A stretch of 64,000 bases of DNA from Flavobacteriaceae bacterium (GTDB lineage: Bacteria > Bacteroidota > Bacteroidia > Flavobacteriales > Flavobacteriaceae), in NCBI GenBank assembly GCA_965224465.1, contig OZ245049.1:3185895-3249894 (forward strand), given 5' to 3'. Under the pieces are notes generated by a model. The model did no database searches and was not told the origin of the DNA. It saw only the letters and a program-made list of their open reading frames with translations. Positions 6,297 through 60,139 of the stretch are shown here, piece after piece (within the stretch, counting starts at the first letter, position 1; each line of letters starts with the position of its first letter). The translations under genes and the position numbers were made by a program.

Positions 6297-6456
6297 ATAC
6301 CAAATACATTTCCAAGAGACGGTTTAGAAATGGAATTATTTTTTATTTTAGCTAGGCGAAAAAAAGAAGGATAGTGTAGCTATCGTTCTGTTTTTCAACA
6401 ACGCTAGAAGGTAAAATAAACTATTTATATCGGTTATTTTGGATTGTAATTGGTAT
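6297..6456 (+). repeat. MITE-like repeat copy A (160 bp, about 30-bp imperfect TIRs)
   Basis: Begins ATACCAAATACATTTCCAAG and ends TTGGATTGTAATTGGTAT (reverse-complementary termini). Internal GATAG-N5-CTATC and CGTTCT...AGAAGG hairpins. Nearly identical to copy B. Confidence 0.85.
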
Positions 6457-6457
6457 C

Positions 6458-6615
6458 ATACCAACTACATTTCCAAGAGACGGTTTAGAAATGGAATTAT
6501 TTTTTGTTTTAGCTAGGCAAAAAAAAGAAGGATAGTGTAGCTATCGTTCTGTTTTTAAACAACGCTAGAAGGTAAAATAAACTATTTATATCGGTTGTTT
6601 TGGATTGTGTGGTAT
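6458..6615 (+). repeat. MITE-like repeat copy B, tandem to copy A with a 1-bp gap
   Basis: Near-identical to copy A. Confidence 0.85.
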
Positions 6616-8270: not shown

Positions 8271-8576
8271 AAATAATTATTTTAAGTTAATAAGAGATTT
8301 TTCAGGTTTTTAAAGCAGAATTAAATTTTTCACGACGCTATAGTCAAAGCTATAGAGCCGTAAAAAATTTGTTTTAGGCTTATTTTCAATTATCTATGAA
8401 CAAAGGAACATACAATATGAGCAGCTCTTAAAAGTGAAGTAATAAATGATGATTTTACCGTGGAAATGTAACTTTTAAGGATCAAAAATGAATCAAGAGA
8501 CACTGTTTATTGATGCTTATTGATGGGGATCTGTTTTGAGATTGTAATTTAAACGCTGTTAAAGGTGGTGTTTTGT

Positions 8577-8738
8577 TATCCCAATTAAATTTCCAAGTGA
8601 AGGTTTAGAAATGGAATTATTTTTTGTTTTAGTTAGGTGGAAAATGGAAGGAGAACCTTAGCTATTGTTCTGTTTTTTAACAACACTAGAACGTAAAACA
8701 ACCTATTTATATCGGTCATTTTGAATTGTAATTGGTAT
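8577..8738 (+). repeat. MITE-like repeat copy C
   Basis: Diverged copy (atcccaattaaatttccaag ... ttgaattgtaattggtat). Flanked on both sides by a roughly 57-bp direct repeat (8519-8575 and 8741-8800). Confidence 0.75.
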
Positions 8739-8794
8739 TATTGATGGGCAGCTGTTTTTAGATTGTAATTTAAACACTACTGAAGGAGGTATTT

Positions 8795-8870
8795 TGTTTA
8801 GGCTAAAAATTAGATGGATTCTCATAGCTGCCCTTCTGTTTTTTAACGACTAAGTCGATTCGTTAGAATT
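8795..8870 (+). repeat. Degenerate partial copy of the MITE-like repeat
   Basis: catagctgcccttctgttttttaacgactaag resembles the family core hairpin region; the 5' TIR is missing. Confidence 0.4.
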
Positions 8871-24285: not shown

Positions 24286-24735
24286 ATGTCAATAAAACAT
24301 CTAAAACCAGTAAAAGGAAGCGTAGTAGAATCAAAAGAACGTAAGATCTTAGTAGCAGATTATATGATTACAAATATAGTGACGTTTTCACCAGATCAAT
24401 TAATTGTTAATGTTATGGATATATTGATAAAAAATAATATTTCAGGAGGACCTGTTGTGAATGAGAAAAACGAATTGCTCGGTATTGTTTCTGAGAGGGA
24501 TTGTATGAAACAAATTAGTGAAAGTCGATATTTCAACATGCCTATTCCTGATGCTATTGTAGACAATCACATGGCAAAAGATGTAGATACGATGGATAAA
24601 AACATGACCATTTTTGATGCCGCTAATATTTTTTATTCTTCTGGAAGGAAACGGTTTCCAATTGTGGAAAATGGTAAATTGATAGGTCAAATAAGTAGAA
24701 GAGATATTGTAAAAGCAGCATTAGATATGATGTAA
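24286..24735 (+). CDS. CBS domain pair protein
   Basis: 149 aa with two CBS repeats. The stop codon abuts MITE-like copy E. Confidence 0.8.
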   Translation: MSIKHLKPVKGSVVESKERKILVADYMITNIVTFSPDQLIVNVMDILIKNNISGGPVVNEKNELLGIVSERDCMKQISESRYFNMPIPDAIVDNHMAKDVDTMDKNMTIFDAANIFYSSGRKRFPIVENGKLIGQISRRDIVKAALDMM

Positions 24736-24893
24736 TATCAACTACATTTCCAAGTGACGGTTTAGAAATCGAATTATTTTTTGTTTTAGCTAGGTGAGAA
24801 ATCTTAGGATAGTTAGCCTATCGTTCTATTTTTAACAACGTTAGAACGTAAAATAAACTATTTATATCGGTCATTTTGGGTTGTATTTGGTGT
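24735..24893 (+). repeat. MITE-like repeat copy E
   Basis: atatcaactacatttccaagtgacgg ... ttttgggttgtatttggtgt. It starts at the last base of the CBS gene stop codon. Confidence 0.8.
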
Positions 24894-24920
24894 AATAAGA
24901 GTTTTTATTGGTTTTATCCA

Positions 24921-25016
24921 ATAAAAAAAACCGTTCAAAGATGAACGGTTTTTTTATCTCTTACCGAAGTAAGTTAGATTGAAACTTTCCCCAAATTTTC
25001 AATTTCTCTAATAAGT
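24921..25016 (-). ncRNA. candidate small RNA, copy a of a 3-copy family
   Basis: On the minus strand: -7 box TATCTTTG (TAnnTTTG); 7-bp hairpin ATTGAAA-N12-TTTCAAT; hairpin CTTAC-UUCG-GTAAG; intrinsic terminator CCGTTCA-tctt-TGAACGG followed by U8. Ends are approximate. Confidence 0.5.
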
Positions 25017-25211
25017 ATGGTACAAAGATATAGATGTTTTAGAATAGCATTGTTCGGGAAAACACATGATTAATTGTGGTTTTGCATAAAACAGAAGTTT
25101 TACTTTTTTTATCCCACTTGAAGGGTTTAATCCTATGAGGATAGGTCTTTAAAAACGAATTAGTTACCGTTTTCTTGGGGCAAATTTTTGAGGGATTATG
25201 TGGTTGGTATT

Positions 25212-25370
25212 ATACCAAATACATTCCCAAGTGATGGTTTAGAAATGGAATTATTTTTTGTTTTAGTTGTCGAAATGGATGGATAGCCTTGCTATTGGTA
25301 TATTTTTTAACAATGCTAGAACGTGAAATGAACTATTTATATCGATAATTTGGGATTGGAATTACTTGGT
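25212..25370 (+). repeat. MITE-like repeat copy F
   Basis: ataccaaatacattcccaagtgatgg ... tttgggattggaattacttggt. Confidence 0.75.
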
Positions 25371-25389
25371 TAAAATTATTTTTTTCAAC

Positions 25390-25485
25390 AAAAAAAACCG
25401 TTCAAAGATGAACGGTTTTTTTATCTCTTACCGAAGTAAGTTAGATTGAAACTTTCCCCAAATTTTCAATTTCTCTAATAAGTAT
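25390..25485 (-). ncRNA. candidate small RNA, copy b
   Basis: Identical core to copy a, with -7 box TATCTTTG on the minus strand at about 25490-25497. Confidence 0.5.
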
Positions 25486-25770
25486 GGTACAAAGATAGGA
25501 ATGTTATAGGATGTATTTGTTCGGTAAAGCGCAGGTAAGACTGTGGGTTTTCGTATTGGATTGAATTTTTTTTTCTGTGCGTTTGTAAAGTTGAGATCTA
25601 TGTATGCTTTACACTCATTTGATTTGTTAAATCTGTATTATTATATTGAATTATTTTTTGCAAGATAAAAGCTAAAATAGCTAGCATAGCTTTTTTATGG
25701 AAAGTTGGTTTTGAAAATTGGTTGTGAAAAGGAACCCCTATAATGCGACATTATAAAGTCAAATGAGGCT

Positions 25771-25915
25771 AATACCAACTATATTTCCATATGACGGTCT
25801 ATAAATTAAATTGTTTTTTGTTTTAGCTAGGCGAAAAATTTAAAGATAGCCTTCGCTATCGTTCTATTTTTTAACAACGTTAGAACGTAAAACAAACTAT
25901 TTATATCGGTGATTT
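25771..25915 (+). repeat. MITE-like repeat copy G, 5' part; interrupted by IS66 and resumes at 27923-27950
   Basis: ataccaactatatttccatatgacgg ... ctatttatatcggtgattt | IS | ggtgattttgattgtaattgtatac. Confidence 0.8.
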
Positions 25916-25994
25916 GTAAGCGTACGGAGAACTACATCTTGTAAGAAGTTAAAAATAATCTAATTTTTGCATCTAAACAAAAACGAAAATATAA

Positions 25995-26348
25995 ATGTTA
26001 GGATTAGGTACAGAACACACGTATTATTATCACTTATCTGCAGTTGATATGCGAAAAGGATTTAATGGATTAAGTGGATTAGTTAGTGAGCACATGGAAC
26101 AAGAGCGAGATAGAAATAGTGTTTATGCATTTATCAATAAGCAAAAAAATAAACTAAAACTTCTTCATTGGCGACCTGGAGGATTTGTACTGTATTATAA
26201 ACGATTGGAACGAGGTATTTTTGAGCTTCCAAAATACGACATTGAAGATGGATTAGTAGTTTTGAGTTATACCCAAATGGTTATGGTTTTAGACGGAATT
26301 AGTATTATAAATACTCAGAAAAACGAACGTTATTTAGAGGCTAAATAA
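25995..26348 (+). CDS. tnpB: IS66-family accessory protein TnpB (Orf2-like)
   Basis: 117 aa with the GFNGLSGLV motif typical of IS66 Orf2. Confidence 0.85.
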   Translation: MLGLGTEHTYYYHLSAVDMRKGFNGLSGLVSEHMEQERDRNSVYAFINKQKNKLKLLHWRPGGFVLYYKRLERGIFELPKYDIEDGLVVLSYTQMVMVLDGISIINTQKNERYLEAK

Positions 26349-26391
26349 TTCAATAAAACTGTAGGTTTTACCTGCTATTTAGTCTTGTTTT

Positions 26392-27894
26392 TTGTATATT
26401 TATAGTGTGGAAAACAATACAATAGACATACAAAAAGAGCTGGTAATTTTAAAGATTGAACTTGAAAAAACAGCTCAAGAACTAGCTGAAATTAAGCAGC
26501 AATACGAGCAGCTTAAAAGAATGGTTTTCGGGTCTAAAAGCGAACGTTTTATCCCTGTTGACACAAATCAATTGTCGCTTTTCGGAAAAATAATAGCTGA
26601 GAAAGAAGAGGCATACAAAAAACATATTGTAATCTACGAAAGAAAACAAAAGAAGAAAGGAAAGAAAAAACCTGTTCGCTCTTCTATACCTGCGCATTTT
26701 CCGCGAGTAGAAGAGATTATAGAGCCTAAGCACATAGAAGAAGGAGCTGTAAAAATAGGAGAAGAAGTTACAGAACTTTTAGAAATAACGCCTCTTTCCG
26801 TTTTTGTAAGACGAATTGTAAGACCTAAATATGCACTTCCGGAAGAAAAAGGCGTTGTTATAGCAGAATTACCAAGCTTACCGATACCTAAAGGAAATGC
26901 ATCAGCAAGTTTATTGGCCTTTATACTTATTTCAAAATTTGTAGACCATTTACCACTTTACAGATTAATTCAAATTTTTAAACGACAAGATTTAAAAGTA
27001 AGTAAATCAACAATTGGAGGATGGGTATCTAAAAGTTCGGAGCTTATCGCTCCTTTATACGATACATTTAAGGCTCAGTTTTTAGAAAATGCCAATTATA
27101 TTCAAGCAGACGAATCTCCTATAAAGGTTTTAGATAAAGACAAGAAAAAATCAACACACAGAGGGTATATGTGGGTGTATCGAAATCCTGTTAAAAATTT
27201 AGTTCTTTTTGAATACAATAAAGGGAGAGGAAAAGTTGTTCCAGAAGAGTTTTTTAAAGATTTCAATGGGACACTACAGTCCGATGGGTATGCTGCATAC
27301 CAAAACTTAACAACAAAAGGAGAAATTACTCTTTTAGGTTGCATGGCTCATGCTAGGCGGTATTTTGAGAAGGCGCTGGATAATGATCCTAAAAGAGCGG
27401 ATGTTGTTTTGTTGGAAATTCAAAAGCTATACAAGATAGAACGTAAAATAAAAGAACAAGAATTAACTATTGAGCAAACTAAAGCATATAGAGAAAAACA
27501 TGCATCACCTGTTTTAGACGGAATAGAAATTTATCTTACAAAAGAGCGAAAAAACGTACTGCCTAAAAGTGCCATAGGAAAAGCAATTGCTTATACTCTT
27601 AAAATATGGCAAAACCTAAAACTATACATCGATGATGGCAGGTTTGAAATAGACAACAATAATATAGAAAATGCCATAAGACCTTTAGCTATTGGCAGAA
27701 AAAATTATCTCTTTGCTGGCAGTCATGAGTCCGCACAAAACATAGCTCTATTTTATAGCTTTTTTGCTACTTGCAAAAAGAATAACGTAAACCCACATAC
27801 GTGGCTATGTGATGTCCTTAATAGATTACCAGAACATAAGGCTAATAAACTTTCGGAGTTACTGCCTCAAAATTGGAAGCCTGTTGATAAATAA
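26392..27894 (+). CDS. IS66-family transposase
   Basis: 500 aa with an N-terminal leucine-zipper-like region and central DDE region; LFAGS and CMAHARR motifs. Confidence 0.88.
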   Translation: MYIYSVENNTIDIQKELVILKIELEKTAQELAEIKQQYEQLKRMVFGSKSERFIPVDTNQLSLFGKIIAEKEEAYKKHIVIYERKQKKKGKKKPVRSSIPAHFPRVEEIIEPKHIEEGAVKIGEEVTELLEITPLSVFVRRIVRPKYALPEEKGVVIAELPSLPIPKGNASASLLAFILISKFVDHLPLYRLIQIFKRQDLKVSKSTIGGWVSKSSELIAPLYDTFKAQFLENANYIQADESPIKVLDKDKKKSTHRGYMWVYRNPVKNLVLFEYNKGRGKVVPEEFFKDFNGTLQSDGYAAYQNLTTKGEITLLGCMAHARRYFEKALDNDPKRADVVLLEIQKLYKIERKIKEQELTIEQTKAYREKHASPVLDGIEIYLTKERKNVLPKSAIGKAIAYTLKIWQNLKLYIDDGRFEIDNNNIENAIRPLAIGRKNYLFAGSHESAQNIALFYSFFATCKKNNVNPHTWLCDVLNRLPEHKANKLSELLPQNWKPVDK

Positions 27895-27992
27895 TCAAGG
27901 GTGTACTTTACCGTACGCTTACGGTGATTTTGATTGTAATTGTATACGTTGTTCTTTAGAAATAGATTCTCTAATCAAAATGTTATTAACCA

Positions 27993-28090
27993 AAAAAAAC
28001 CATTCATAGCTGAATGGTTTTTTTAGTGCTTACCTAAATAAGCATTAGATTGAAACTTTCCCCAAATTTTCAATTTCTCTAATAAGTATG
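27993..28090 (-). ncRNA. candidate small RNA, copy c (diverged)
   Basis: -7 box TATATTTG with TTG 19 nt upstream. Hairpin 1 is identical. Hairpin 2 is GCTTA-N6-TAAGC and the terminator is CCATTCA...TGAATGG; both keep pairing through compensatory changes relative to copies a and b. Confidence 0.5.
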
Positions 28091-28179
28091 GTACAAATAT
28101 ATACATATAGGTAGCATAGTCAATTCGGGTTAACACAGGTTAAATTGTGGTTTTCTGTAAATTAAAAACGCATCGTTTT

Positions 28180-29937
28180 TTATGTAGTTTTTATATTTAA
28201 TTGTAAGCTTAGTTCTTTTAGTTGATCTTCTGCTATTTTTGATGGAGCGTCAATCATTACATCTCTTCCACTGTTGTTTTTAGGGAAAGCTATAAAATCT
28301 CTAATGGTCTCTTGACCTCCTAAAATAGCAACCAATCTGTCCAGTCCAAAAGCCAAACCACCGTGTGGCGGTGCTCCATAAGTAAAGGCATTCATTAAAA
28401 AACCAAATTGCTCTTGTGCTTCTTCAGGAGAAAACCCTAAGTATTTGAACATCATTGCTTGCGTGTCTTTATCAAAAATCCTGATAGATCCTCCTCCAAT
28501 TTCGTTACCGTTTAATACCAAATCGTAGGCATTTGCTCTTACTTTTCCAGGGTCTGTTGCTAATAAGTGCATATCTTCTGGTTTTGGTGATGTAAATGGA
28601 TGGTGCATGGCGTGGTAGCGTTTGCTTTCTTCATCCCATTCTAACAACGGAAAGTCTACGACCCATAAAGGTGCAAATTCATCTGGTTTGCGCAGGCCTA
28701 GCGTTTCTGCCATTTCCATACGTAAAGCACTCATTTGACTGCGAACTTTGTCCGTTTCGCCACACATTACTAAAATTAAATCACCTGGTTTAGCACCCGT
28801 AGCATCTGCCCATTTTTGTAAATCTTCTTGCGTAAAGAATTTATCTACAGAAGATTTAAATGTTCCGTCTGCTAAATATTTAGCAAAGATCAAACCGCTA
28901 GCTCCTACCTGTGGTCTTTTTACCCATTTGATTAATTTGTCGGTTTGTTTTCTTGAATAATCAGCACATCCAGGAACCGCAATACCAATTACCATTTCTT
29001 GACTGTCAAAAACGGCAAAGTCTTTTCCTTGTGTAATATTGTTGATTTCGGAAAACTCCATTCCAAAACGAATGTCTGGTTTGTCGTTTCCGTATTTTTT
29101 TAAGGCATCCGCATAGGTCATTCTTGGGAATTCTGCTACGTCTACATTTTTTAACTCTTTTAATAAGTGGCGTGTCAACCCTTCAAATACTTTTAAGATG
29201 TCCTCTTGGTCTACAAAGGCCATTTCGCAGTCTATTTGTGTGAATTCTGGTTGTCTGTCTGCACGTAGATCCTCGTCTCTAAAACATTTTACAATCTGGA
29301 AATACTTGTCCATTCCACCTATCATTAACAATTGTTTAAAGGTTTGTGGTGATTGTGGTAAGGCGTAAAACTGACCTTGATTCATACGGCTTGGCACTAC
29401 AAAATCTCGTGCCCCTTCTGGAGTAGATTTAATCAAATAAGGAGTCTCAATTTCGATAAACTCTTGATCTGATAAATATTTACGAACCTCCATTGCCACT
29501 TTATGGCGGAAAATAAGATTATTTTTTACAGGGTTTCTTCGGATGTCTAAATACCTGTATTTCATACGGATATCTTCTCCTCCGTCTGTTTTGTCCTCAA
29601 TCGTAAATGGAGGAGTTACAGATTTGTTTAATACAGTAATCTTTGATGCTAGAATTTCAATAGCTCCTGTTGGCATTTTATCATTCTTAGCCACACGTTC
29701 AATAACTTCACCAGTCACTTGAATTACAAATTCACGTCCTAAGTCTTTTACTTGATCAATAAGTGCTTTATCACTGCGTTCTTCATCAATTATAATTTGA
29801 GTAATCCCATAACGATCACGTAGATCTATCCAAATCATAAATCCTTTGTCTCGTATTTTTTGTACCCAACCAGAAAGTATCACTTCTTGTCCTTTATGCG
29901 CTATTCGTAATTCTCCGTTCGTATGACTTCTGTACAT
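28180..29937 (-). CDS. aspS: aspartate--tRNA ligase
   Basis: 585 aa class II aaRS with an N-terminal anticodon-binding OB fold and FRDEDLR / GGGSIR motifs. Confidence 0.95.
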
Positions 29938-30964: not shown

Positions 30965-30984
30965 TAAACAGCGAAGGGCTTATG

Positions 30985-31075
30985 ATACCAATTACAATCC
31001 CAAATGATCGATATAAATAGTTTATTTTACGTTTAGCGTTGTTGAAAAACAGAACACTTTTCTTAGGTTTTTTAT
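30985..31075 (-). repeat. Truncated, degenerate copy of the MITE-like repeat, minus orientation
   Basis: ataccaattacaatcccaaatgatcgatataaatagtttattttacgtttagcgttgttgaaaaacagaac, then decays. It lies just 3' of the PAP2 gene. Confidence 0.6.
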
Positions 31076-35692: not shown

Positions 35693-35814
35693 TAATCTCT
35701 GTTTTGTACCACGCAACAACGGTTTGTGTGTCTTGGCTAATACATGTAATATACATAATATTATTATGCATAAGAAAATTATGTATATATTTACAAAATA
35801 AGAATAGACGAAAT

Positions 35815-36165
35815 ATGGGGAATCAAAAATTATATAAAGGCTCGTTACAAACAATCATTTTAAAACTATTATCAGAAAATGATAAGATGTACGGCTACGA
35901 AATCACGCAAAAGGTAAAGGCATTAACCAAAGGTGAATTACAAATTACCGAGGGCGCTTTGTATCCAGCTTTGCATAAGTTGGAAGCCGAAGGGTTATTG
36001 GATGCAGAAGTGGAGAGAGTAGATAATAGGTTGCGAAAATATTACAAACTTACAGAAAGTGGCACCAAGGAAACGGTGAATCGCTTGGTGCAATTAGAGG
36101 AGTTTATCCAAACCATGCAGCATTTGTTACATCCTAAACTTATACCAACCTACAATCCAAAATAA
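35815..36165 (+). CDS. PadR-family transcriptional regulator
   Basis: Winged-helix PadR motifs (YGYEI...GALYPALHKLE). Start chosen at the in-frame ATG at 35815. The last 8 codons are encoded by MITE-like copy I. Confidence 0.8.
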   Translation: MGNQKLYKGSLQTIILKLLSENDKMYGYEITQKVKALTKGELQITEGALYPALHKLEAEGLLDAEVERVDNRLRKYYKLTESGTKETVNRLVQLEEFIQTMQHLLHPKLIPTYNPK

Positions 36166-57192: not shown

Positions 57193-59192
57193 TAGTTGCT
57201 AAATATAAAAACATACAGCTTATTTTGTTTTTGGTTTTTGGACTTGTTTTTTCGGTTTTTGGGCAGGAAAAATCGGATAAAGACGCTTTAATAGATAGCA
57301 TGTATTATTACCTTGACAGGTCTTATAAAGAAAAATATTCTTTTGATAAGAGTTTGTTTTTTTTAAATAAAGCGGTGGATGTTTCGGACTATTTAATGTT
57401 GGACAGTTTACAAATAGAATCCAGAGTTGTTTTTGCGGAGTTTTATCAATACAATAGATTATTTCCAGAGATGAAAAACAGTTTAGACGAAGTTTTTAAA
57501 CTGTTTAAACCAGATACATCTAAACAATTTGTATATGCCAATATATTATTGGGAAATTATTTTGAAAGAACACAAAAATTAGACAGTGCTTATTATTCAT
57601 ATAATAAAGCGAAGAAGATTTCTTTGGCTTTAAAAGACTCTTTGTTAGGGGGTGATGTATCATTAAATATCGCTAGGTTTTATTGTAAAGTACGGGATTT
57701 TGTTTCCGCAGAACATGAAATAATTCAAGGCTTAAAATACTTGGAGCCAGGAGATAAGGGTCCGTGGATTATCAATTCTTTATATGTGTTGCTTGCCAGC
57801 TGTAAATTTGAGCAGTATGATGAGGAAGAGGCGATGAATCTTTATAGGAAGTCCTACAATATTGCAGTCAAAGAGAAAGATACATTGATTATGTTAAATG
57901 CCTTAAATAACATGTCTTATACAAGTTCTTATTGTAAAAATAAAGACTCTGTAATGCTGTATTTGGAAAAGGGATTGGCGTTTAAAGGAGTTGATGTTAC
58001 GTTTCCAGAGTTTTATGGAATGATGTTAGCCAATTTGACGTATGAGAAATTTCTTGTAGGGGATACGAAAGACCTGTTGGAAAATTATCAAAAAAGTTAT
58101 GAAATAGCAGAAAAAATAAGTCATTTTAGACTGCGAATAATGATTCATAACTTTAGAGGGCACTTTTACAAAAAGAAAGGTGATACAAAAAAGGCTATTC
58201 AACAGGGCTTGTTATCTTTAAAAATGTCGAGAGCTAACAGCTCTAATGATTGGTTGCTTAAAAACTTAAAATTACTGGCTGTATTGGACAAAGAAAATGC
58301 TGTTAATTATATAAATCAGTTTAATAGCCTGTCTGATAGTTTACAAAAAAATGAATATAAATATGTAAATAGACTTGCAGGTATTGCTTACGAAACACAA
58401 AAAAAAGATAAAGAAAACAGAAATCTAAAAGAGGACAACAAGTTGAAATCTTTGGATTATGAAAGAGTAAAATATAAAAAAACGGTTATAGTCTTATTGT
58501 TGATATTAAGTATTTTGGGCTTTGTAATTATGTATATGAGGTTTAGGAATAGAAATGCTAAGATAATTTATGAAGCAGAATTATCCAGGGCAGATGTCAA
58601 AGAAGAAGAGCGAGATAGAGTAGTAAGAAAACTCAATAAAGAGATTTCTAATGAATTATTTGAAATAGAGGGTCTTTTAAAAAAAGCTGGAAATTTAAAA
58701 TTAGCGGTTCAAACAAGAAGAGTTACGGAAATTATTGGTGAGATAGCCACGGAATTAAGTATCAAGAATTTTGATGATATTTCCTTTAATGATCAAGTGA
58801 AAGATTTAATCAAAAGTTATGAAACCGAAAATTTTAAACTATGTTTGATTGGTTTAGATAAAGTAAAATTGAAAAAGATTACAGACCTCCAAAAACAAGC
58901 CCTGTATTTAGGGATTAGAGAGAGTATACATAATTCAGTGAAACATGCTGAGGCAACTAGGATTACAGTGAAGTTTTCTCATAAAAAAACCAAACTGAAA
59001 GTTGTAATTACAGACAATGGTCGTGGATTTAATACCGATAGTAAACGAAACGGAATTGGTCTAAAGAATATAAAAGAAAGGATACTTAGGTTAAAAGGAA
59101 CGTTTTTAATTCAAAGTAAAATAAATGAGGGGACGAGAACACAAATTAGTGTAGAATTTAAAAAAAGAGGAAAAGAACATGAAACGAATTAG
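57189..59192 (+). CDS. TPR-repeat sensor histidine kinase (NarL/LytS-type HisKA_3 + HATPase_c)
   Basis: 667 aa with signal/TM, TPR repeats, a second TM helix, H-box, N-box HNSVKHA, G1 ITDNGRGF and G2 GIGLKNIKER. Confidence 0.75.
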   Translation: MIVAKYKNIQLILFLVFGLVFSVFGQEKSDKDALIDSMYYYLDRSYKEKYSFDKSLFFLNKAVDVSDYLMLDSLQIESRVVFAEFYQYNRLFPEMKNSLDEVFKLFKPDTSKQFVYANILLGNYFERTQKLDSAYYSYNKAKKISLALKDSLLGGDVSLNIARFYCKVRDFVSAEHEIIQGLKYLEPGDKGPWIINSLYVLLASCKFEQYDEEEAMNLYRKSYNIAVKEKDTLIMLNALNNMSYTSSYCKNKDSVMLYLEKGLAFKGVDVTFPEFYGMMLANLTYEKFLVGDTKDLLENYQKSYEIAEKISHFRLRIMIHNFRGHFYKKKGDTKKAIQQGLLSLKMSRANSSNDWLLKNLKLLAVLDKENAVNYINQFNSLSDSLQKNEYKYVNRLAGIAYETQKKDKENRNLKEDNKLKSLDYERVKYKKTVIVLLLILSILGFVIMYMRFRNRNAKIIYEAELSRADVKEEERDRVVRKLNKEISNELFEIEGLLKKAGNLKLAVQTRRVTEIIGEIATELSIKNFDDISFNDQVKDLIKSYETENFKLCLIGLDKVKLKKITDLQKQALYLGIRESIHNSVKHAEATRITVKFSHKKTKLKVVITDNGRGFNTDSKRNGIGLKNIKERILRLKGTFLIQSKINEGTRTQISVEFKKRGKEHETN

Positions 59193-59856
59193 AATAATTG
59201 CTGTAGATGATCACAATTTTTTACTAGAAGGAATTGTAAATGCTTTAGATAAGCACGACGAAATAGAAATTGTTGTAAAGAGCAAATGTGACGAAGCGTA
59301 TAAAGAGATATTGAGTGCTATTGCAAAAAAGACCCCTTTTGATATTGTATTTACAGATTTGAGTTTTGAAAACACAACAGATTCCGATGAAATTTTAGGA
59401 GGAGAGGATTTATTAAGGAAATTAAACAGTGAAAATATAGCGATTAAAAAAGGGGTAATTACAGGGCATTCTTCCATTAATAGGGTGTTTAATGTCATAC
59501 ATAATTTAAAACCTCAAGCCTATATTTTAAAAAGCAACTGTTCTTCTGACGAACTTTATTTTGCAGTTCGGAAAATGCTGAAAAACGAATATTTTTATAC
59601 ACATTCTATTCATGAGAAACTTATGAGACGTAGAATTGTAGAAATTCAAATGGACGATGTTGCTATTCAAATTTTAAAAGAATTACCAAGGCATTCAAAA
59701 ATTAAAAATATGGTGGGTGTAATTAACAACTCAAAAGGTGTAGCGTTAAGTCTACGAACTATAGAAAATAAATTGAGCAATCTTCGCATAGATCTAGATG
59801 CAAATAACAATATCGATTTATTTACCATCGCCAAAGAGTTAGGGATTGTAGATTAA
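59179..59856 (+). CDS. response regulator, receiver plus divergent LuxR-type HTH
   Basis: Receiver residues AVDDH, FTDLSF (phospho-acceptor Asp), ITGHSS and a conserved Lys. C-terminal TIENKLSNLRIDL is LuxR-like. 14-bp overlap with the kinase gene. Confidence 0.65.
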   Translation: MKRIRIIAVDDHNFLLEGIVNALDKHDEIEIVVKSKCDEAYKEILSAIAKKTPFDIVFTDLSFENTTDSDEILGGEDLLRKLNSENIAIKKGVITGHSSINRVFNVIHNLKPQAYILKSNCSSDELYFAVRKMLKNEYFYTHSIHEKLMRRRIVEIQMDDVAIQILKELPRHSKIKNMVGVINNSKGVALSLRTIENKLSNLRIDLDANNNIDLFTIAKELGIVD

Positions 59857-60103
59857 AGGGTGTAAATGATGGTAGATGGACTGAAATACAGCAAGAGTCT
59901 TAGATTTAAATCTAATAATTACCTAGCATAGAACTTAGGTTCTTATACTTTTATCTTTAATTCTCAGTCATTTCAGAAAAGCACACGTGTAAATGTGTTT
60001 TACCGTTACTGATTTATAGGATACTATGTATATTTGTAAGGTACTTGATATATAAATTGCTAGTTTGAAGTTATTATAAGTACTAAAATTGAAATGAAAA
60101 AGG

Positions 60104-60139
60104 GAAAAAAGCTATCTTTTAAAGATGGCTTTTTTTTTT
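60104..60139 (+). terminator. orphan intrinsic-terminator-like hairpin inside the 470-bp intergenic region
   Basis: A6-GCTATCTTT-t-AAAGATGGC-T10. It lies about 250 bp downstream of the regulator stop and about 190 bp upstream of the TBDR start. Confidence 0.45.

Follow-up and report, generated by a model that had tools for sequence, protein, structure and literature searches.

What kind of locus is an interval of 3,444 bp that is filled with repeats and holds no host open reading frame (ORF)? This question is raised by the DNA between the stop codon of a gene for a CBS-domain protein and the stop codon of aspS, encoding aspartate-tRNA ligase, in a member of the Flavobacteriaceae. The interval (24736-28179) was analysed within a stretch of 64,000 nt (the window), in which all positions given here are numbered, and together with stretches from relatives, labelled L001 to L021. 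It is filled by three copies of about 160 bp of a miniature inverted-repeat transposable element (MITE; copies E, F, and G), three small RNA (sRNA)-like genes of about 100 nt (a, b, and c), and one insertion sequence (IS) of the IS66 family. A preliminary description had read the interval as a tandemly iterated composite unit of MITE and candidate sRNA; our results indicate that it is probably a lineage-specific cluster of sibling small-RNA genes, which was later invaded by unrelated mobile elements.

Parts of the preliminary description hold. No host ORF is present, the only ORFs of at least 100 amino acids being the two IS66 genes, and the repeats as well as their threefold MITE-then-sRNA arrangement were recovered by blastn and repeat finding, all elements being confirmed far beyond chance. 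Its end of the interval at 28110 has to be moved: the aspS ORF ends at 28180, so that the earlier boundary was 70 nt short and cut off the region upstream of copy c.

Candidate Small RNA Genes

The sRNA repeat occurs three times only in the window, and the copies are closely alike, with 91% identity over 150 nt between a and b (E value 2e-57) and 84% between a and c (E value 1e-42). Copy a (24923-25018, minus strand) has a predicted length of 96 nt, reaches 126 bits with our model R1 and a fold z-score of -4.2, and displays covariation. Copy b (25390-25485, minus strand, 96 nt) is the same as copy a over the predicted RNA save one position at the 3' edge of the alignment, while copy c (27992-28089, minus strand, 98 nt) is identical to both in its 5' 53 nt and shows compensatory changes in hairpin 2 and in the terminator. 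The minus-strand alignment of the three copies contains 53 invariant nucleotides. All of them are convergent with the CBS gene and lie on the same strand as aspS.

From its 5' end, the predicted RNA consists of a 5' tail, a hairpin 1 with a GGGG apical loop lying within UUUGGGGAAAG, a hairpin 2 with a UUCG loop (in copy a), and an intrinsic terminator. The stems of hairpin 2 read CUUAC/GUAAG in a and b and GCUUAU/GUAAGC in c, and three versions of this hairpin were found across the homologs, namely CUUAC/GUAAG, GUCUAC/GUAGAC, and CUUGC/GCAAG. The terminator is composed of a 13-bp stem and four to nine U (U8 in the three window copies); every cell of it is paired, with double changes at two pairs, and its stem reads CCGUUCA/UGAACGG or, by a compensatory change, CCAUUCA/UGAAUGG. 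In an alignment of 12 sequences with the structure specified, 97% of the cells pair and five pairs have double changes, no shuffled or slid control coming close. The 14 sequences fitted to the model, including that of L009, revealed 98.6% paired cells and nine pairs with double changes. In the pairing control, none of 500 shuffles reached the observed value. Fold z-scores ranged from -3.9 to -5.1 overall and from -4.2 to -5.0 for the window copies, which fold into three hairpins. The RNA part is conserved to 80-99%, versus 45-65% for the upstream regions of the distal copies.

Upstream of the RNA part, a TAnnTTTG-type -7 box (TAT[C/A]TTTG) is invariant in all 14 copies, with the invariant part of the body beginning 5 nt further on. 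The Bacteroidetes-type, sigma-A -7 box occupies positions -12 to -5 in Flavobacterium (PMC9723704), which places the predicted +1 on the A of CAUACUUA; sequence invariance begins exactly there. The promoter regions, all on the minus strand, extend over 25023-25082 (copy a, box TATCTTTG at 25023-25030), 25490-25549 (copy b, box at 25490-25497), and 28094-28153 (copy c, box TATATTTG at 28094-28101 with a TTG 19 nt upstream), and each includes a palindrome with CCGAA (25053-25082, 25520-25549, and 28124-28153, respectively). TAnnTTTG alone is not enriched in the window, with 105 occurrences found and 103 expected, so that only its invariance and its spacing across homologs count as promoter evidence. 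Helix 1 of model R1, in which the -7 box is paired with UUAGAG, was rejected as an artefact of RNAalifold, since the box lies upstream of the predicted start.

A scan of the 64 kb against Rfam 15 at gathering thresholds, covering FopS, GibS, and Flavo-1, gave no match. In a permissive search of 24600-28300, nearly all sub-threshold matches over the sRNA repeats were terminator hairpins, and the few others, located in IS66 or MITE G, were weaker still. A search for tRNAs and tmRNA likewise found none. By the Rfam 15 scan, the sRNA family would be previously uncatalogued, with a putative function read from its sequence features. The regulatory RNAs of marine Flavobacteriaceae are almost unexplored, and the locus provides a new, cleanly defined sRNA family that is backed by comparison among relatives and for which promoter, start, structure, and terminator are predicted.

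The Locus in Related Genomes

Searching with a 24-mer from hairpin 1 retrieved four metagenome contigs, and a 20-mer led to three metagenome-assembled genomes (MAGs) of Flavobacteriaceae (NORP150, NORP167, and NORP270) and to one chance match. Every true match of the core motif proved to be syntenic with the window, with 72-84% nucleotide identity in aspS and the CBS gene. Look-ups of the CBS protein added the loci L009 to L013, including two closer relatives with 93% and 91% protein identity, while CBS homologs of at most 64% identity have lost the synteny with aspS.

In eight syntenic loci, the interval between aspS and the CBS gene measures only 240-560 bp and contains one or two sRNA copies, but no MITE, IS, or ORF. 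One copy was found in L009, L012, L002, and L003, two copies in L001, L007, and L008, and at least one in L006, where the locus is incomplete. Neither MITE nor IS was found in the relatives' loci L001 to L019. The presence of sRNA copies without mobile elements in the relatives means that the sRNA array is ancestral to the clade and that the MITE and IS66 additions are specific to this genome. A protein-coding gene at this place in relatives, with the repeats as its remains, had been named as the finding that would speak against the preliminary description; no relative has one. The dedicated sRNA locus which that description had considered is borne out, as all related loci recovered keep the gene at this place, following aspS and facing the CBS gene in convergent orientation.

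In the copy of L009, the outer stem and the initial ~24 nt are missing, whereas TATCTTTG, UUUGGGGAAAG at a hairpin apex, a CUUGC/GCAAG hairpin 2, and the terminator are retained. Run with its filters off, model R1 gave weak terminator-type matches only in the regions following aspS of Aureivirga and Lutibacter, which show 80-81% and 79% AspS identity, respectively. The sRNA family appears, as far as these sequence matches reach, to be restricted to a narrow clade within the Flavobacteriaceae, of marine and subseafloor origin. In addition, L002 (3760-3900, in window orientation) and L003 (4700-4790) contain what is left of a second, decayed copy, with pieces of its promoter and of TTAGATTGAA, which shows that the copy number fluctuates by loss as well as by gain.

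The RNA parts of copies a and b are 99% identical, versus 60% for their upstream regions, and the variants of hairpin 2 are specific to the genome, not to the position in the array. Together, both observations suggest gene conversion among the tandem copies. The recombination proposed earlier for this locus is thereby supported in an indirect manner, the contrast between RNA and upstream parts fitting gene conversion or strong selection.

Upstream Palindrome and a Distal Unit

The motif AATTGTGGTTTT, which the preliminary description had seen to recur after copies a and c, was found at 25072-25083 and 28143-28154, the former within the palindrome of copy a. It represents one arm of an imperfect palindrome, AAAAsCACA-N8-TGTGyTTTT, which is followed by nCCGA (yTTTnCCGA); copy b carries the motif in a degenerate form, ACTGTGGGTTTT. 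The palindrome pattern gave five matches at four sites of the window versus 0.01 expected by chance, the site at 60 kb matching on both strands. In 13 promoters, including that of the 60-kb locus and of its ortholog in L020, the spacing between CCG(A/T) and the -7 box is 22-23 nt, and most of these promoters are devoid of a -33 TTG. From this architecture, we infer a probable activator-dependent promoter with a shared operator.

The distal locus (59978-60139, plus strand) has the same promoter architecture: its palindrome (59978-60007) is followed 22 nt downstream by TATATTTG (60029-60036) and by a terminator-ended unit of about 99 nt (60041-60139). The RNA body is a different one, made up of a 5' hairpin GGUACUU..AAGUACU, single-stranded AAAAUUGAAAUGAAAAAGGG, and a terminator, though this unit and the aspS-linked RNAs both have AAUUGAAA...GGGRAAA. 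It is located between a gene pair for a TPR-histidine kinase and a response regulator and a gene for a SusC-like TonB-dependent receptor, lying directly upstream of the latter. In the relative L020 (3342-3500), the unit is conserved together with its -7 box and the core CACA-N8-TGTG-CTTTTCCGA. The candidate shared operator ties the sRNA family to a second sRNA beside a two-component system and a SusC-like transporter, and the NarL/FixJ-like response regulator encoded at 59179-59856, next to the 60-kb unit, is, by its position, a candidate for the operator-binding factor. In L021 (3317-3400), from the same MAG as L009, a palindrome AAAACCACA-N8-TGCGGTTTCCCGA precedes the gene of a 619-aa protein of unassigned family; the -7 box of this gene, TATTTTTA, is imperfect. 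Hence, the element also occurs outside sRNA promoters.

The sRNA-like repeats always lie downstream of aspS and on its strand, their terminator is bidirectional with an A-tract and a T-tract, and the palindrome upstream of the proximal copy could be the terminator of aspS. They might for these reasons be regarded not as independent genes, but as products of the aspS 3' untranslated region or of read-through, or else as bidirectional terminators with protein-binding DNA, duplicated by slippage. We consider this unlikely. An invariant TAnnTTTG box stands at a fixed distance before every copy, the distal ones included, and after the variable spacer of 22-23 nt invariance sets in from +1; moreover, this promoter module also drives a unit unrelated to the repeats, both at 60 kb and in L020, and 53 invariant nucleotides go far beyond the need of a terminator.

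Insertion of the MITE Copies

Copy E of the MITE (24736-24892, plus strand, 157 bp) has the ends TATCAAC...TTTGGTG and is bracketed by TAA at 24733-24735 and 24893-24895, copy F (25213-25369, plus strand) by TTA at 25210-25212 and 25370-25372. Copy G, preceded by TAA at 25770-25772, is broken by IS66 into a left part (25773-25915, plus strand) and a right end (TGATTGTAATTGTA, 27931-27944, plus strand), after which TAC follows. Compared with the window by blastn, copy E revealed 79% identity to F (E value 2e-30) and 86% to G (2e-42). In total, the window contains nine full copies of 155-163 bp, six of which lie outside the interval, a partial copy of 77 bp (30979-31055), and a fragment of 29 bp (2249-2277). 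Aligning the copies with their flanks gave the ends 5'-TACCAAnTACAnnTCCAAnTGAC... and ...GTCATTTTGGATTGTAATTGGTA-3', with the consensus 5'-TACCAA...TTGGTA-3', and imperfect terminal inverted repeats of about 25 bp.

The element is short, non-coding, and multicopy, and TAA or TTA brackets the copies C, D, E, F, I, and J. An empty site for copy J is present in L006 and L007 as AAAC[TTA]CTTAAT, whereas in the window the element sits between two copies of TTA; the site of copy I is likewise empty in the relatives covering it. With its length of about 160 bp, its ~25-bp imperfect inverted ends, its TAA/TTA duplications, its many copies, and its presence or absence in comparison with relatives, this non-coding element resembles the Tourist-like MITEs. 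The 3-bp TWA duplication is of the IS5/PIF-Harbinger (Tourist-like) type, and the MITE may belong there, as judged from the duplication type only. Within the window, no autonomous element with ends matching those of the MITE was found. As a structured RNA the MITE is inconspicuous, the single-strand fold z-score being only -1.2.

The linkers between MITE and sRNA, described before as non-conserved and 16-45 bp long, measure 27, 17, and 44 nt past the target duplications and are mutually unrelated. The spacers, described as partly conserved and about 180-270 bp long, measure 179 nt after a and 272 nt after b, and only their first ~65 nt, comprising promoter and palindrome, are alike. Linkers and remaining spacers show no similarity to each other or to anything else. 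In the simplest reading, the sRNA units are constrained from the palindrome to the terminator, and the gaps 3' of the terminators are the only tolerated landing sites.

A transposase with a preference for targets immediately 3' to intrinsic terminators, or to these sRNA genes in particular, is an improbable cause of this pattern. Such targeting, with each insertion independent, would account for the three local copies all lying 17-44 nt from an sRNA terminator in one orientation, and the three MITEs fall within 956 bp of non-mobile intergenic DNA in which 0.95 would be expected if the density were that of the window's remaining intergenic DNA. This local density is about three times the window average, though not significantly increased (Poisson P about 0.07), and the insertion hotspot of the preliminary description is indicated only weakly. 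Other copies of the MITE are found in other contexts, J being situated in the final codons of an ORF, E at a stop codon, A and B in a head-to-tail dimer, and C within another repeat, and the sole common feature of the targets is TWA in AT-rich DNA.

Still less probable is the amplification of a composite unit, as proposed in the preliminary description, by which a single MITE would have been inserted beside an sRNA gene and the whole block of MITE, linker, sRNA, and spacer then duplicated in tandem. Order of elements and orientation of the MITE are indeed the same in all three units, the first two are similarly spaced (467-477 bp), and the upstream regions of a and b (60% identity) and the copies E and F (79%) are about equally diverged, so that divergence alone would be compatible with an old duplication. 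Yet the flanking trinucleotides differ (TAA/TAA for E, TTA/TTA for F, TAA/TAC for G), so that the target duplications of E and F are not the same, and the linkers and spacers share no similarity. Identities among the three copies amount to 79% (E-F), 83% (E-G), and 77% (F-G), while each of them is nearer to copy I at 35.5 kb, about 10 kb away (90%, 84%, and 87%, respectively), and this star-like identity matrix means that the MITEs were inserted separately. Relatives with two tandem sRNA copies have no MITE. The tandemly iterated composite unit is thus rejected; its repeated pattern arose as a side effect of insertions and does not constitute a functional module. Raw sequence should be read with caution in such cases, since a MITE that lands time and again in the only gaps a tandem gene array can spare can give the impression of a designed composite repeat unit.

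Proposed History and Function

In the cluster of sibling sRNA genes proposed here, the members of the clade have one or two copies of a ~96-nt gene downstream of aspS, of which three are present in this genome. The ~160-bp MITE was inserted three separate times, in this genome only, into the non-essential gaps 3' of each sRNA terminator, and IS66 subsequently into one of the three MITEs, copy G. The genes may be transcribed from their own promoters as trans-acting regulatory RNAs, whose invariant 5' half, including the G-rich loop, could contact targets or a protein. Additional copies might add dosage or be kept alike by gene conversion, and the palindrome would be the operator of a transcription factor also driving the second, different sRNA-like gene at 60.0 kb.

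Several points weigh against this account. Pure chance would lead one to expect a somewhat less regular placement of the three MITEs, all of which share one orientation and lie at 17-44 nt from a terminator. The palindrome might serve the preceding gene as a weak terminator rather than act as an operator, the preceding gene being aspS for the proximal copies and the response-regulator gene at 60 kb. Most loci were retrieved by an exact match inside hairpin 1, leaving L009 as the only independent test of this hairpin, and diversity is low, with 0.96 effective sequences in the model, so that the double changes represent few events. Since the alignment of 14 sequences was fitted to the model, its pairing counts are biased upward. 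For the sRNAs, the promoter, the start of transcription, and both RNA ends are predicted, and no target was identified: a duplex scan of 48 start regions in the window gave no outlier and was discarded, and complements of the G-rich loop were found only within the sRNA genes themselves.

That the repeat encodes a very small protein, TTG-initiated MKIWGKFQSNLLR of 13-16 codons, can practically be dismissed: though a short TTG ORF runs across hairpin 1 in copies a to c and most relatives, no ATG is available, no conserved ORF was found in the sRNA repeat, frame-changing indels shift frame and end, giving the copies different C-termini and stops, L009 has no such ORF and retains UUUGGGGAAAG only, and all codon positions are equally invariant, indicating a constraint at the RNA level.

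Comparison with Known Systems

The tandem sibling sRNAs OmrA/OmrB, PrrF1/PrrF2, and AbcR1/AbcR2 are similar to the locus in that near-identical genes of about 100 nt, two to three in the present case, are arranged head-to-tail in one intergenic region, each with its own promoter and terminator, and vary in copy number from one related genome to another. An insertion element lies between omrA and omrB in one or more E. coli strains (PMC4211561). The locus described here differs from these siblings by the lack of any sequence or Rfam relationship and by its occurrence in another phylum. No Hfq-type chaperone is known for the phylum of this genome.

FopS/GibS of Bacteroides form a multicopy sRNA family, of which FopS acts on mRNAs of SusC-like transporters (PMC11697453). 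Belonging to the same phylum, this family is likewise multicopy; its promoters are of the TAnnTTTG type, its RNAs combine a conserved, seed-like 5' part with an intrinsic terminator, and the distal unit of our window adjoins a SusC-like gene. In contrast, FopS is contained in Rfam, while nothing in the window reaches any Rfam 15 threshold; the FopS consensus consists of a single-stranded 5' stretch and a terminator, whereas the RNA described here has three hairpins; and the copies of FopS are dispersed, while ours are in tandem at one locus.

A third resemblance exists to sRNA sets controlled by two-component systems, such as the csRNAs (PMC4211561) and LhrC1-5 under LisR (PMC5880928), where, as in the present case, multiple sRNA genes are preceded by a common repeat or palindrome whose distance to the core promoter is constant; here, one member adjoins genes for a histidine kinase and a response regulator. 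Different from those sets, the link to the adjacent two-component system is positional only. The operator of the csRNAs is a direct repeat rather than a CACA-N8-TGTG palindrome.

A farther-reaching reading is a small regulon of this Flavobacteriaceae clade marked by CACA-N8-TGTG and yTTTnCCGA, in which structurally different sRNAs, i.e., the aspS-linked siblings and the unit upstream of the SusC-like gene, would have the seed AAUUGAAA...GGGRAAA in common, be activated by the adjacent TPR-histidine kinase and NarL/FixJ-type regulator, and control the expression of TonB-dependent transporters. Such a regulon, an independently arisen functional analogue of the Bacteroides FopS, is a speculative and rather doubtful extension of our results.

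Flanking Genes and Mobile Elements

The CBS-domain protein gene (24286-24735, plus strand) is an ORF matching the Pfam family CBS (3e-26), and its TAA stop codon (24733-24735) is at the same time the left target-site duplication of MITE E. This copy was thus inserted exactly at the stop codon, which survives as the duplicated TAA. The ORF of aspS (28180-29937, minus strand; Pfam tRNA-synt_2, 1.6e-120) is co-directional with the sRNA genes and upstream of them.

MITE and IS66 are ordinary, standard mobile elements. Outside the interval, the MITE copies A and B (6297-6612) form a head-to-tail dimer, being 96% identical, joined by TCA, and flanked by TTA on the outside, which looks like a tandem duplication of the element rather than two insertions. 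On both sides of copy C lies a direct repeat of 61 nt with 85% identity (8517-8577 and 8738-8798), and a degenerate copy of the internal core of the MITE follows right after the second one (8799-8850). Too long for a target duplication, the 61-nt repeat may represent a second, related repeat family or a local rearrangement. Copy J occupies the last codons (36140-36165) of an ORF (35704-36165), so that the C-terminal ...LT* of the relatives is replaced by residues encoded by the element. Orientation divides the MITE copies into two groups, one on the plus strand (A to G, 6.3-27.9 kb) and one on the minus strand (H to J, 31.0-36.3 kb). A replication switch was rejected as the cause of this split, since the GC skew stays largely positive from end to end of the window, apart from slightly lower values at 28-34 kb.

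The third unit had been noted to carry an IS66 insertion, which is supported by Pfam matches to TnpB_IS66 (4e-29) and DDE_Tnp_IS66 (1e-93); the insertion lies inside MITE G, not in an sRNA gene. The element (25916-27922, plus strand, 2007 bp) is present as a single copy in the window and contains tnpB (25995-26348) and the gene of a DDE transposase (26392-27894). It has terminal inverted repeats of at least 12 bp (GTAAGCGTACGG / CCGTACGCTTAC) and is flanked by a perfect 8-bp duplication GGTGATTT at 25908-25915 and 27923-27930. Both protein families, the length of the duplication, and ends starting with GTAAGCG are in line with the IS66 family, from which it deviates by having two ORFs only, without tnpA (orf1). 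The exact TnpB sequence is on record for two contigs, one of which holds the CBS protein of the window and additionally two near-identical TnpB variants, which suggests several IS66 copies in the genome.

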